DNA of 64,000 nt from NCBI RefSeq assembly GCF_964194155.1, contig NC_135907.1, positions 21,142,001 to 21,206,000 of the forward strand, given 5' to 3'. Shown in pieces: positions 4,390 through 63,726 of the stretch (position 1 is its first letter; every line of letters starts with the position of its first letter). Under the pieces are notes generated by a model. That model was not told the DNA's origin and searched no databases. It saw only the letters and a program-made list of their open reading frames with translations. This stretch comes from Cetorhinus maximus (taxonomy: Eukaryota). A program made the position numbers and the translations under genes.

Positions 4390-5319
4390 TCCTTTTACTT
4401 TGACCGGGATGATGTTGCCCTGCGTCACTTTGCTGAGTTCTTCAAGGAGCAGTCACATGAGGAACGGGAACACGCTGAGAAACTGATGAAATTCCAGTGG
4501 AGGCCGGATCATCCTGCAGGACGTCAAGGTTAGATTTAATGGAATAAGAGGTTGCCCGATTAAAGCAATGCTTTTGGTTTAGTTCCACAGTTTAATGTAG
4601 TAATTCTATATTCTTGTGGTGAATTGGTTCCTGGTAACACCATCTTTAGGATGCTTCATCACCTCTGTTTTCCTTGCACTTTCCCATGTGTCTTGTTTAA
4701 CCCATTGTAAATGAACTGTGTGCCTTTCAGAAACCAGAGCAGGATGAGTGGGGCAATGGTCTGGAGGCAATGCAGAGAGCTCTGCAGATGGAGAAGAATG
4801 TGAACCAGAGTCTGCTGGATCTGCACAAGCTCTCCTCTGGGAACACTGACCCTCATGTAAGTTCCTGATGCTTTAATGTGGGCTATTGGATAAATGAACA
4901 TGGGTGATGTTACTGTCCCTTTACATCTCTACAGCCACCTGCTTTTTTTTCATTGGTGTCTCTTGGGGATGGGTGAAGGGGGAGAGGACAGATGTTGTGG
5001 CTAACCCAGGATATAATCACTTTTTAAAGAAAAATTCCCTTGATCAATTACCTTACTGATTGGCTGACTATATCCTCTTGGTCCGAAGCGATTTGAAATC
5101 CAATCTGAGGGAATTCAGTTGATACTTTGTGATGCTGGATGTAACTAGTTTCTTCCTCCTTCCAGCTGTGACTTCCTGAAGATTCACTATTTGGATGAGC
5201 AAGTGAAGATGATCAAGAAGCTTGGAGATCACATCACCAACCTGAAGAGACTGGGAGCCCCTGAGAATGGCATGGGAGTGTACCTGTTTGACAAGCTCAC
5301 CCTGGGGGAGAACAACTGA
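4390..5319 (+). pseudogene. Ferritin pseudogene F1 (exons 2-4; exon 1 not found in the window)
   Basis: Exon 2 4390-4528 has an 8-nt deletion (AATAAACG) causing a frameshift. Exon 3 4731-4856 is intact. Exon 4 5166-5319 has a 2-nt deletion at its start. AATAAA at 5423-5428. Confidence 0.9.
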
Positions 5320-5459
5320 ACAGACTTGAGCTGGCACTATTTGTATAATTGTGTATGAGACTCCATCCTGTGGACATCGATGACTTGGGCATTTGTACAA
5401 AGATCTGAGCTCTTCAATGTGAAATAAACTGGATCTTGGACGGGGTTTTGCCTCCAATC

Positions 5460-5855
5460 TTTTTTCCTTTAATGGGATGTGGGTGTCATTGGCAAGGCCA
5501 GAATTTGTTGCCCATCCCTAACTTGCCTTGAACTGAGTGGCTTACTAGGCCAGTTCAGAGAGCGGTGAAGAGGCAGCCACACTGCTGTGGATGTGGAATC
5601 ACACGTAGGCCAGACTAGGTAAGGATGACTAACTGACAGAGTTTGCTCCCTAAAAACATTAGTGAGCCACCTAGTGTTTATACTACTATTGATTTCATGG
5701 TCACCATTACTGAAACTAGCAGATTCCAGATTTCAATGACTGGATTTAAATTCCATTAACTTCTGTGGTGGGATTCTGCCCCGTTTCCCTTCAGGATTAG
5801 CCCAGGCCTCTGGATAACTAGATTGGTGACATTACTGCCACAACATCATCTCCTC
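5460..5855 (-). mobile_element. tRNA-derived SINE sharing its 3' tail with the L2/CR1-type LINE
   Basis: Matches other copies at about 24945-25215, 25765-26065, 29565-29750, 32465-32825, 50405-50770, 52885-53180, 54315-54800 and 61685-62030. Tail ...TAGGGATGGGCAA...CCCACATCCCATG is shared with the LINE. Confidence 0.7.
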
Positions 5856-59569: not shown

Positions 59570-60770
59570 TGGCTAGACCAGCATTTATTGCCCATCCCTA
59601 ATTACCCTGGAGAAGGTGGTGGTGAACTGTCTTTTTGAACCACTGCAGTCCATGTGGTGTAGGTACACCCACAGTGCTGTTAGGAAGGGAATTCCAGGAT
59701 TTTGACCCAGGGATAACGAAGGAACGGCCAATATATTTCCAAGTCAAGATGGTGTGTGGCTTGGAGGGGAACTTGCAGGCATCTGCTGCCCTCGTCCTTA
59801 TAGAGTCATCGAGTCATAGAGGCCCATCAAGTCTATGCCAGTCAAACAAGTACCTAACTATTCTAACCCCATTTTCTAGCACTAGGCCCATAGCCATGGC
59901 ATCGCAAGTGCACATCCAAATACTTCTTAAATGTTATGAGGGTTTCTGCCTCTACCACCATTTCAGGCAGTGAGTTCCAGATTTCCACCACCCTCTGGGT
60001 GAAAAAATTCTTCCTCACATCCTCTCTAAACCTCCTGCCCCTTATCTTAAATTTATGCCCCTGGTTATTGATCGCTCCACCAAGGGGAAAAGTCTCTTCC
60101 TGCCTATTCCTATCTATGCCCCTCATAATTTTATACACCTCAATCATGTCCCCCCTCAATCTCCTCTGCTCCAGGGAAAATAACCCCAATCTATCCAATT
60201 TCTCCATATCACTAAAACTCTCCAGCCCAGGCAACATCCTGGTAAATCTCCTCTACACTCTCTCTAGTGCAATAACATCCTTCCTATAATGCGGATTCCA
60301 GAACTCCTTCTAGATGGTAGAGGTCGCAGGTTTGGAAGGTGCTGTCAGAACAGCCTTGGTGAGTTCCTGCAGTGCACCTTGTAGATGGTACAACACTGTG
60401 CATCGTGGTGGAGGGAGTGAATGTTGAAGGCAGTGGACGAGATACCAATCAAGTGGGCTGCTTTGCCTGGATGGTGTTGAGCTTCTTGAGTGTTGTTGAA
60501 GCTGCACCCATCCAGGCAAGTGGGGAGTATTCCATCACACTCCTGACTTGTGCCTTGTAGATGGTGGACAGGCTTTGGGGAGTCAGGATGTTCGTTACCT
60601 CCTTAGAATTCCCAGCTTCGGACCTGCTCTTGTAGCCACAGTGTTTATACGGCTAATCCAGTTGAATTTCTGGTTATTCATAACCTCCAGGATGTTGATA
60701 GTGTGGGATTCCATGATGGTTCTGTCATTGAATGTAAAGGGGAGATGGTTAGATTCTCGCTTGTTGGCTA
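59570..60770 (-). mobile_element. L2/CR1-type LINE fragment with a nested CR1 3' fragment (about 59800-60305)
   Basis: Host LINE breaks at ...CTCGTCCTT and resumes at CCTTCTAGATGG. The insert encodes LDRLGLFSLEQRRLRGDMIEVYKIM. Confidence 0.8.
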
Positions 60771-63570
60771 ATTTGCAGGATTTCATGGTAAACCTGGACC
60801 ATCTGCCAGTAATTTTATAGCAGGATGTCTGGCAGAAGGAGTGAGATAGAAGTGAAAGGAAGAATTTTCATTTATATAGCACCTTTCACAATCTTCTAGC
60901 TTGGCAACTGCAAACATGGGATATCGTCTCCCATTCCAAACCCCAGATTTACCTTTTATAGTGAAGAATTGGCTCCAGTTCTAATCTCTGGCATTTTACT
61001 GCACACCATCCCAAAACACATCACCCAACTCCCTATCACCTTTGTATTCTAAATAATCATTCTGGGGATAAGAGCCTTGTTAGCAAGGCCACCATCTATT
61101 GCCCATCCCTACTTTATCCTTGAAGGTGGTGGTGGGCTGTCATCTTGACCTGCTACCGCACATGTGGTGAAGCTACTCCCAACAGTGAAGGGGGTTCCAG
61201 GATTTTAACCCAGGAACAATGAAGGAACCTCCATTATGACATTGACTGGTTAGTGTGAACAGCCTGTTTCTGTGCAGGATATCCAATGTTAAGAAACACT
61301 TTCTAAACCGTTTGGTGGCTGAATACAATGTTTACCCTGCTGCAGAAAAATGTAACTGAGACCAGGAGATCTCTGTTGATCAGTACCTTACTATTACAGC
61401 CAAGTGTTGAGTAGCAGTTGAATGAAACACATACTCCTTAAAATAAAATGCAACTAACCGGAAAAGAAAGCTCATGATCCAAATCGTAAATAGAAGATTC
61501 ATCCATTGTGTTTTTCATATTGATGATTGACTCAAGCACTGTCTGACCAGTGTATATTCAAATACCACTCTTCCTGATACAGCCTGCCCAAAATGGAAGA
61601 TGTCACAACCACCACCCAACCACCCCGCCAAACCCCAAATGAAGTTAACCTTATCTTGAAATGGTAAATAATCAATAGGTATTTTTTATGCTTTCATGGG
61701 ATGTGGTTGCCACTGGCAAGGCCAGGATTCCCAATGATCTTGAAGTGAACATTTCACAGGGCAGTAAAGAGTCAACCACATCGCTGTGCATTTGGAGTTA
61801 CAACCAGGCCAGATCAGGTAAAGATGACTGATTTCCTTCTCTAAAGGATGTTAGTGAACCAGATGGGCTTTTTAAAAAATCAATCCCTAGTTGTCACTGT
61901 CACCATTACTTAGTCTAGCTTTATATGCTAGATTTATCAATTGAGTTTATACTCCCACCAACCATTAGTGGGATTTGAACCCATGACCCTGGAGCATTAG
62001 CCTGGGACTCAGGATTATTATTCTAGTGAGATTATCTTTGGTCAGACAGATATACATTGATTCAGAATGTTGAGCAGTTTTTAAGACCAAAGGTTTGGCT
62101 CATATTGGAGGTTGAACCTATGGAAGTTAAATTTGCCAGTGATACCAAGATTGGTAGGAAAGTAAGCTATCAAGTGGAGGTAAAGAGTTTATAAAAGGCT
62201 GTAGATAGGTTAAGTGAGTGGACATACAAATTAGGAGCAGGAGTAGGCCATTTAGAGTATAATTTGAACTTGGCCACAGGAAGAATAGAAAAGCAGTAAA
62301 TTATTTAAATGCAGAGACTCTGCAGAACTTGGTGGTTAAGAGGGATGTGTGTATCCTGGTACATAAATCATAAGTTAGTATCCAGGTACAGCAAGCAATT
62401 AGGAATGTTGGTGTTTATTGCAAGGAGAATGGAATATAAAAGTAGTTGAAGTTTTATTGCAGCTATACTAGGCCTCAATTGCTTCACCCACATCTGGAGT
62501 ACTGGGTACAGATTTTGGTCTCGGTTTGAAAAAAAGGATATAACTGCATTAGAAGTAATTCAAAGAGGGTTCACTTAATTCATTCCTGGGATGAAGGGTT
62601 TAGCTTATGAAGCAAGGTTGAACTTTACCCTTTGGAGTTAATGAGGGGTGATTTTTTGAAACATTAGATCCTGATGGGACTGGATTGGCTGCAAAAAGTA
62701 ATTAGAAAGAAAAAAAAACACATTTTCCCCCCTCACTGAGTGAGTGGTTAGGGTCAGGAATGCACTGCCTGAGAGTGTGTGGTGGAGACAGGTTCAATTG
62801 ACACATTCAAGGAGTTAGATGAGTATATTTTGAAAAGATGCAAGGTGCAGGGGTATGGGGAGAAAGGCACTAGGTGAAATGCTCAGAACTAGTGCAGACA
62901 CAATGGACCAAATAGTCTCTTTGTGCAATCAAAGCCCAGGCAAGCTGCTAGATCAGCCAGATATACACCTACTGGGGTAAAACAAAGTGAGAGTGTGGAG
63001 AATCGAAACACCAAGGCACTACTGGTGACGAGTCCAAATTTCTGTTGGCCAGAAGCATGAACAAATTTGACCCTTAGGATCAACCCCAAATGCAAGAGTG
63101 ATCCTCATCTGCAATTTTGTGATCATTGAAAAATGAAACAGTGCAACAATTGTATTCCTACTGACAAACAGCTCTATTCACATTTAAAATAAGTTGTGTA
63201 ACATTATCATCAATTCTAGGAACTAAGACACTTTTCACAGTCATGAGAAGACAGGTGTTGAATATTTTGAAGGGAAATCATGAATTTCTTCCATGTAATC
63301 AGTGACTTGCTAACTAAGATTACTGTTACAGCCTCTTTCAAATTCCCAATCATTTCAGCATTAAACCCAAGTTAGATGGTTCCTTAAGAACAGAGGAAGA
63401 GGAAGTTCAATACAATAGCTTTTATTTGTAGCAATTATTACTACAGCTGCAATACAGGTCACAAACATTACAGAAGTATTTGTGGAGCTAAATCAAAGCC
63501 TCATACACTGGAGATCACTTGATATACAGTTTCTTGGTCTACAATTTAGACTTGTAGGCCAGTGGTAGAT

Positions 63571-63726
63571 TCAGTCACACTCCCCCAGGGTGAGCTTGTC
63601 AAACAGGTACTCTCCCATGCCATTCTCAGGGGCTCCCAGTCTCTTCAGGTTGGTGATGTGATCTCCAAGCTTCTTGATCATCTTCACTTGCTCATCCAAG
63701 TAGTGAGTCTCCAGGAAGTCACAAAG
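63571..63726 (-). CDS. fth1-like: Ferritin exon 4, locus F15 (rest of gene beyond the window end)
   Basis: [51 protein letters not shown]; canonical acceptor; AATAAA near 63421 (minus). Confidence 0.85.

Follow-up and report, generated by a model that had tools for sequence, protein, structure and literature searches.

An intron-bearing ferritin array without iron-responsive elements in the basking shark, and its likely transcription in the germ line

The genome of the basking shark Cetorhinus maximus carries a tandem array of intron-bearing ferritin genes that lack the iron-responsive element (IRE), are likely transcribed in the germ line, and share closely similar coding exons set among introns that align little better than shuffled sequence. 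We analysed a stretch of 64,000 nucleotides (assembly GCF_964194155.1, contig NC_135907.1, hereafter C30, positions 21142001-21206000; the window) and read a further 180 kb to its left and 200 kb to its right. The reading we favour, at somewhat better than even confidence, is an iron-independent oocyte ferritin array, IRE-less and germ-line-transcribed, whose exons are homogenised by recombination amid the birth and death of copies. Many weakly constrained copies sharing a TATA promoter would be transcribed in the female germ line, and their mRNAs would be translated regardless of cell iron through freedom from repression by iron regulatory proteins (IRPs). The product would be a cytosolic ferritin with ferroxidase activity, serving the egg as an iron store or buffer; its subunits would stay interchangeable through recombination among coding exons, and single copies would be born and lost while selection acts on pooled output and not on each copy.

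Extent, regulation and protein products of the array

To locate ferritin loci, we searched six frames for motifs and mapped exons against those of one gene in the window. Mapping of the window and flanks places the main array at C30:21,076,868-21,275,117, a span of ~198 kb that holds 37 loci, 22 of them with all four exons and 17 intact. The common layout is four exons of 102, 147, 126 and 156 nt and three introns with GT-AG sites, and identity to the reference exons, mostly 82-100%, excludes chance resemblance. Fourteen loci touch the window, on both strands and amid debris of long interspersed nuclear elements (LINEs) and other repeats, which agrees with the count of about 15 in ~60 kb made by an earlier sequence-only reading whose description was otherwise accurate. 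That reading found only two intact genes, which is true of loci wholly inside the window and is an effect of the window: intact loci number 5 of 14 in the left segment, 2 of 12 in the window and 10 of 11 in the right segment. The window is the most decayed segment of the array and the right segment the best preserved. Intron-bearing array pieces also lie on C2 (at least 7 loci, 2 intact) and C15 (at least 4 loci, 0 intact); sections of the main array contain introns and spacers up to 90% identical to theirs. Genome-wide totals are lower bounds, drawn from the best 150 of 195 candidates.

An array of this kind could in principle be an over-expansion of the assembly, which is probably not the case here and which we consider extremely improbable because the 444 kb covering the array contain no N, the closest gene-bearing duplicate (7.2 kb) reaches 97.1% identity, and the array flanks sort into 13-24 distinct types. 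Multiple copies are present, too, in independent assemblies of many sharks. The feature that speaks for such an error is a 1,618-bp perfect inverted duplicate at C30:21.116-21.121 Mb. It sits in intron 1 of a broken locus (L016, C30:21,115,789-21,121,223), consists of a repeat present at several other places, and records either a recent event or a local assembly error.

The IRE/IRP switch is the textbook control of vertebrate ferritin, in which IRE-bearing mRNAs are translationally repressed via IRP when iron is low. Taking as an IRE a stem-loop in the 5′ untranslated region (UTR) with an unpaired C and a CAGUGN loop, we found the Rfam family IRE_I at only two places in the genome (82 candidates scored), the FTH1 gene on C9 and a single gene at C30:21.31 Mb, and no IRE in the window or in 31 further ferritin-region loci outside these two single genes. 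A relaxed pattern matched none of the 37 array first exons within the 300 nt upstream of each. The two positive-control IREs score 42.6-42.7 bits and fold with z of -2.4 and -2.5, whereas three array leaders fold with z of -0.96 to +1.07. A candidate IRE relic in the minority leader type (window positions 58722-58760 and 52570-52608) was rejected, having no Rfam match even at E 10 and no IRE fold. Because they lack an IRE, array mRNAs would, by established knowledge of the switch, escape translational repression at low iron. Upstream of the first exons, a TATA box lies 49-79 nt before the ATG in 32 of 37 cases and a TGATGYMA motif is present in 26 of 37, and these motifs are kept across copies while the UTRs diverge. 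The shared region of TATA box and TGATGYMA motif is a putative array promoter, and the TGATGTCA motif is presumably similar to a cyclic-AMP response element (CRE/ATF-like).

Queried with an open-frame retrocopy of array type, a protein search puts sharks of six orders at the top of its list, in 90%-identity clusters of 180, 138, 127 and 69 members. The genes are multi-copy in hexanchiform, pristiophoriform, heterodontiform, orectolobiform, carcharhiniform and lamniform sharks, and their proteins are ~88% identical across orders; an array-type protein of the basking shark is 70-73% identical to mammalian H chains. The tree with H, M and L ferritins suggested by the earlier reading was built in part, as a quick maximum-likelihood tree of 103 proteins with H and M chains and no L chains among its rows, rooted at the midpoint and supported by the SH-like approximate likelihood-ratio test (SH-aLRT) only. 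All 19 intact array-type genes fall within a 62-row clade together with shark proteins and one from a ray (SH-aLRT 95), with a chimaera protein as sister (92), followed by a second basking-shark ferritin cluster (89). The C9 gene groups with vertebrate FTH1, and the array clade stands apart both from it and from the IRE-bearing M-type gene. By sequence, the array copies are placed as a cartilaginous-fish ferritin paralogue and not as FTH1.

The ferroxidase site, whose residues and numbering we assume to be E27, Y34, E61, E62, H65, E107 and Q141, is complete in 13 of the 17 intact copies, the exceptions being E27R twice, H65N and E61G. The array chain is thus predicted by its residues to be of the ferroxidase-active H/M kind. 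At the four-fold channel it carries, in alignment with PDB chains, Leu instead of His173, a state we take to be L-chain-like. The ferritin domain PF00210 is found on the array-type retrocopy L059 at E 6.6e-36, and the best PDB matches, human FTH1 and bullfrog M (1bg7/1mfr), reach E of about 1e-80 (5.5e-80). Array genes share with these two the four-exon structure and the ferroxidase residues, and differ from vertebrate H and M genes in their dozens of copies, missing IRE and Leu at position 173, and in that 7 of 17 intact copies end three residues early, as a 173-aa type that stops where the PDB H-chain sequences 6h5i and 7r5o stop. The proteins are 173-176 aa long and align end to end with cytosolic H/M chains, beginning at residue 1-2; because the alignment reveals no extra N-terminus, signal peptide or insertion, they are likely cytosolic.

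Probable germ-line transcription and a candidate role in the oocyte

Among 28 intronless-looking ferritin matches examined, 19 are closest to array mRNA, 7 to FTH1 and 1 weakly to the M-type gene, with 1 ambiguous. The 19 array-type retrocopies show 82-97% identity, each spans at least one exon junction, and several have A-rich tails; excluded from this number is L056, which a 3′-flank repeat places with the second cluster and whose join of exons 3 and 4 is 90% array-like. Because heritable processed copies need RNA in the germ line or early embryo, the array family appears to have been transcribed and spliced there, and we consider its transcription in the germ line likely. The 5′ ends of FTH1 retrocopies lie at -102 to -135, with the IRE stretch included; those of the longest array retrocopies lie mostly at -36 to -44, ~30 nt behind the TATA box. 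Full open frames are found in an array-type retrocopy of 176 aa (L059:632-1162) and an FTH1-type retrocopy of 177 aa (L058:640-1173). A further retrocopy (L091, C9:1,272,300-1,274,000) joins exon 1 straight to exon 3 and is a record of exon-2 skipping in an array mRNA.

For the tissue, the accessible passages of a Greenland shark preprint state that its largest ferritin cluster is expressed ovary-specifically (bioRxiv 10.1101/2024.09.09.611499), and if that cluster, on scaffold-30, is orthologous to the basking-shark array, as we assume from the protein family that sharks have in common, the ovary is the likely site here too. Ferritin mRNA is described as abundant in vertebrate ovaries in the portion of text available from an earlier study (PMC1488847). 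Several specialised roles had been suggested for the array from the sequence alone, and the one in oocyte or ovary is the best supported of them, by the Greenland shark expression and the retrocopies; no evidence turned up for an erythroid, immune or structural role, at which no test was aimed. A role outside the oocyte seems quite unlikely to us, whether the epigonal organ uses the array to withhold iron in immunity, the testis uses it against oxidants, or stress induces it via the TGATGTCA motif. Shark ovaries sit inside the lymphomyeloid epigonal organ, according to partially available sources, so that ovary RNA is mixed; the retrocopies are silent on sex and cell type, and the motif is present in 26 of 37 promoters. 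However, the retrocopies require RNA of the germ line or early embryo, the expression reported in the preprint passages is tissue-specific to ovary, and egg ferritins have precedents in fish, frog and snail in the parts of the literature at hand.

Probable exon homogenisation, near-neutral copies and rival readings

Across the 136 pairs formed by the 17 intact genes, four-fold degenerate sites are identical at a median of 0.949 (mean synonymous divergence, dS, 0.08). Intron 3 has a median identity of 0.68 against 0.62 for shuffled sequence, with 53 of 120 pairs exceeding the best shuffle, and intron 2 one of 0.70 against 0.66, with 25 of 105 pairs exceeding it; this shuffle control was used because MAFFT intron distances (about 0.8) are saturated. 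Identity collapses 10-20 nt past the splice sites and falls to about 0.3 by 20 nt. The intron-bearing array with birth and death of copies, proposed from sequence alone, is borne out, with segmental duplicates of 80-97% identity as births and 20 of 37 broken loci as deaths, but birth and death is insufficient alone: because exons are ~95% alike while introns lie near baseline, ectopic recombination within the exons is needed besides. The homogenising force is likely unequal crossing-over or gene conversion. Flanks are mosaic across array loci and chimeric loci are present. Conversion mediated by cDNA is unsupported since intron loss is seen at none of the array loci, and we prefer exchange at the DNA level.

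The same pattern appears between species. Both the 173- and 176-aa types occur in several shark orders, and order-specific residues are common to the two types, for example in nine or so columns of the sevengill copies. Each of 45 testable proteins is nearer to the other C-terminal type of its own order than to its own type in other orders, in a set of 65 of 119 proteins (54 dropped, mostly carpet sharks) taken from 90%-identity clusters, a biased sampling that counts against the favoured reading. The short C-terminal type may have more than one origin. On these sequences the array would qualify as a concerted family, with copies closer within than between lineages and silent sites homogenised.

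Further results weigh against the favoured reading of a homogenised oocyte array. A recombination test of the pairwise homoplasy index (PHI) type on coding sites is not significant (p 0.51, 63 sites), and the ratio of nonsynonymous to synonymous private changes (N/S) is 2.03 in the 17 intact copies, 2.21 in 22 broken copies and 1.94 in the 19 retrocopies (p 0.56-0.86). A ferroxidase residue is altered in 4 of 17 intact copies. Retrocopies cannot separate ovary from testis or embryo, their number per source gene is about 1 for the array against 7 for FTH1, and one of them, L063, extends to about -83, into the TATA region. In 28 array 3′ ends no cytoplasmic polyadenylation element (CPE) lies ahead of the poly(A) signal; the 2 matches are both behind it, leaving CPE control in the oocyte unsupported. 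The accessible text of a spiny dogfish study places ferritin among liver-unique and not ovary proteins.

If exon similarity reflected strong selection on mRNA or codons together with slow shark substitution, classical birth-and-death without conversion would do, and this single step of the favoured mechanism would fall. The null result of the PHI-like test is in line with such constraint, and the sharp drop in identity at exon edges is expected under selection too. We nonetheless judge it distinctly unlikely: all four bases occur at four-fold sites (G22 T19 C16 A7; GC content at third positions, GC3, 0.64-0.66), so codon bias is mild, there is no purifying signal per copy, order-specific residues recur in both C-terminal types and chimeric loci exist.

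With intact copies and retrocopies indistinguishable in N/S (p 0.86), purifying selection per copy is undetectable and single copies drift almost neutrally, a result that goes against strong dosage selection on each copy. The dosage selection put forward earlier can therefore act only on pooled output, and selection on the pooled product, if there is any, would fit the protein identity across orders. The array might also be nearly neutral as a whole, with one or a few copies that matter and the rest carried as passengers of unequal crossing-over and conversion in the absence of dose selection, a reading that is unlikely but that we weigh more heavily than pure constraint or a role outside the oocyte. 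The equal N/S, the 20 broken loci, the mostly decayed window and the mosaic flanks all suit it; the persistence of many copies across six shark orders with ~88% identical proteins, the upkeep of promoter motifs while UTRs diverge and the intactness of 10 of 11 right-hand loci do not.

Window loci, further ferritin genes and prior reports

The window holds two complete intact genes, both on the minus strand. The gene at 32930..34594 (exons 34493-34594, 33721-33867, 33423-33548 and 32930-33085) is of the short-tail 173-aa type with 7 of 7 ferroxidase-site residues, has no IRE within 300 nt before its ATG, and is preceded by the putative shared array promoter at 34668..34712 (-), with the TGATGTCA motif at -118 and TATAAA at -79. 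The gene at 56804..58673 (exons 58572-58673, 57851-57997, 57319-57444 and 56804-56959) encodes 176 aa, likewise with 7 of 7 ferroxidase-site residues, and has the minority promoter type and no IRE. Exon 4 of a third intact gene, at 63571..63726 (-), carries E61G; the earlier reading had this locus running off the window edge, and the next 1.5 kb supply the rest of an intact gene (to 65468). The first locus, 4390..5319 (+), has exons 2-4 in the window and was said to lack exon 1, which exists outside the window at -486 to -384; exons 1 and 2 are frameshifted and the start of exon 4 is damaged. A chimeric four-exon locus at 50881..52519 (-), with a +1 frameshift in exon 2, combines a 5′ leader of the 56804-58673 type with introns 2-3 and a 3′ UTR of the 32930-34594 type, to which introns 2 and 3 are 95-97% identical and intron 1 is 65% identical.

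An orphan exon 1 at 12245..12346 (+) retains its ATG and GT donor and has its own TATA/TGATGTCA promoter. The next locus, at 15811..21121 (+), has four exons, of which the first has lost 5 nt and the other three are open, and a LINE reverse-transcriptase fragment (PF00078, 17043-17417) inside intron 1. Joined in silico to exons 2-4 of this locus (18488-21121), the orphan exon gives an open 173-aa frame, and by splicing past the broken exon 1 at 15811 it could form a predicted third working gene in the window. The remaining loci are debris: exons 1-3 at 21838..23515 (-), with the start codon gone, splice sites damaged and a stop in exon 3; a partial orphan exon 1 at 26805..26906 (-); exons 1, 3 and part of 4 at 27877..30356 (-), with a stop in exon 3; exons 1-3 at 35200..36843 (-), with the exon 1 donor shifted, the exon 3 acceptor gone and exon 4 absent; an orphan exon 4 at 39502..39657 (-); a partial exon 2 with exons 3 and 4 at 40337..41231 (+), with an early stop in exon 4; and exons 1-3 at 46806..48281 (-), with an exon 2 frameshift and an exon 3 stop. 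Between the last genes the spacer is an old tandem duplication (52900-57200 and 60760-64000, 70-85% identical). A GC-rich, frameshifted element at 43712-46241 (-) resembles, on our assumption, a Penelope-type retrotransposon with a GIY-YIG-like motif; four of its frames gave no Pfam match.

A second, divergent ferritin cluster lies at C30:15,844,970-15,910,538 (L048-L052, L080-L081), with 10 loci, 3 of them intact and none with an IRE, and is ~80% identical in DNA to the array. Its checked intact gene and one other carry E62K, which we take to be the substitution behind the inactive ferroxidase site of L chains, so that the cluster is likely ferroxidase-poor and L-chain-like. Relatives of this cluster are multi-copy in other sharks, in 90% clusters with 76 and 43 members. 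Past the end of the array lie four divergent single ferritin genes, at 21.28, 21.30, 21.31 and 21.35-21.37 Mb (C30:21,283,451-21,365,413; L026-L034); only the M-type gene at 21.31 Mb has an IRE, ferroxidase residues are altered in those at 21.28 and 21.35 Mb, and the one at 21.30 Mb lacks an ATG in the usual position.

In a scan of the flanks that compared the best 150 of 1434 candidate frames with Pfam, the left side of the array yielded Snf7 (L009:695-3345), UQ_con (L008:502-780) and PHD (L003:2529-3110) matches, two of them below the Pfam cut-off. To us this trio recalls the CHMP2A-UBE2M-TRIM28 block of human 19q13. Farther out on C30 lie genes for TIP49 (19.82 Mb), a Bcl-2-family protein (25.40 Mb) and glycogen synthase (25.87-26.01 Mb). 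These families, like the Snf7, UQ_con and PHD trio, would be expected on the chromosome that has FTL in mammals (with BAX, GYS1 and RUVBL2), a candidate correspondence at chromosome level only. C9 likewise has a glycogen synthase gene near FTH1. Mammals have two glycogen synthase genes; there are three in this genome, at C30:25.87-26.01 Mb, C12:53.16-53.21 Mb and C9:88.70-88.81 Mb, the last 1.2 Mb from FTH1.

Ferritin expansion in sharks, which the earlier reading could not say was already described, is reported in outline by a 2024 preprint and by NCBI annotation of many sharks. The available passages of the preprint give the Greenland shark 155 FTL and 179 FTH1 copies, with three clusters syntenic with white shark, and view the clusters as ancient and common to shark species (bioRxiv 10.1101/2024.09.09.611499). 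As far as these passages go, the Greenland and great white shark clusters resemble the array as clustered, multi-copy shark ferritin genes; the basking-shark array is smaller, with 37 loci in the main array, and where the preprint labels copies FTH1 or FTL at ≥90% identity to human, an array-type protein of the basking shark is 70-73% identical to mammalian H and the copies form their own clade. The same passages contain nothing on IRE loss, retrocopies or exon homogenisation, and the word 'iron' occurs in them 0 times. A second preprint has no match for ferritin, fth1, iron or ferroptosis (bioRxiv 10.1101/2025.02.19.638963), and the accessible parts of two articles hold nothing on ferritin expansion (PMC5568229, PMC11719527). 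NCBI shark proteins named 'ferritin heavy chain A/B-like', 'oocyte isoform-like' and 'higher subunit-like' belong to the same family as the array, and three proteins of this genome are identical to entries under the label Cetorhinus maximus. The protein names were assigned automatically from the best hit, vary among near-identical copies, and are no evidence of oocyte expression. In our literature search the shark expansion came up in one paper and its IRE loss or conversion in no paper; subscription journals and bioRxiv supplements may treat them. New here, and not found in print, are the separate paralogue, the IRE loss, the retrocopy evidence, the exon-only homogenisation and the near-neutral drift of each copy.

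Snail yolk ferritin is an egg-associated protein whose 5′ UTR, like that of the array genes, lacks an IRE, and its signal peptide and 42-aa insertion, as given in the available part of the report (PMC10799875), are absent from the 173-176-aa shark copies. In alignment, the array proteins do not match the signal peptide and insertion of secreted mollusc and flatworm yolk ferritins, and the snail parallel is one of analogy, not homology of specialisation. A bolder version of our reading, which we hold only tentatively and think on balance improbable, is an iron-blind egg system in which the IRE-less, ferroxidase-active array and the second IRE-less cluster, with E62K in its three intact genes, would form H/L-like shells that pre-load yolk or oocyte with iron. 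Such a system would be a vertebrate counterpart of snail yolk ferritin. Recombination confined to exons would have maintained its uniformity from before the divergence of the shark orders, and selection would act on the pooled dose.

The array offers a clean example of homogenisation confined to exons. It also matters for any attempt to read ferritin copy number in sharks as a longevity trait: the expansion spans shark orders, the family is distinct from FTH1, and its single copies are nearly neutral. If the favoured reading of an IRE-less oocyte array holds, sharks would bypass the IRE/IRP switch by germ-line gene amplification, and the array would suggest, in a form open to test, how mothers provision very large, long-gestating eggs with iron.

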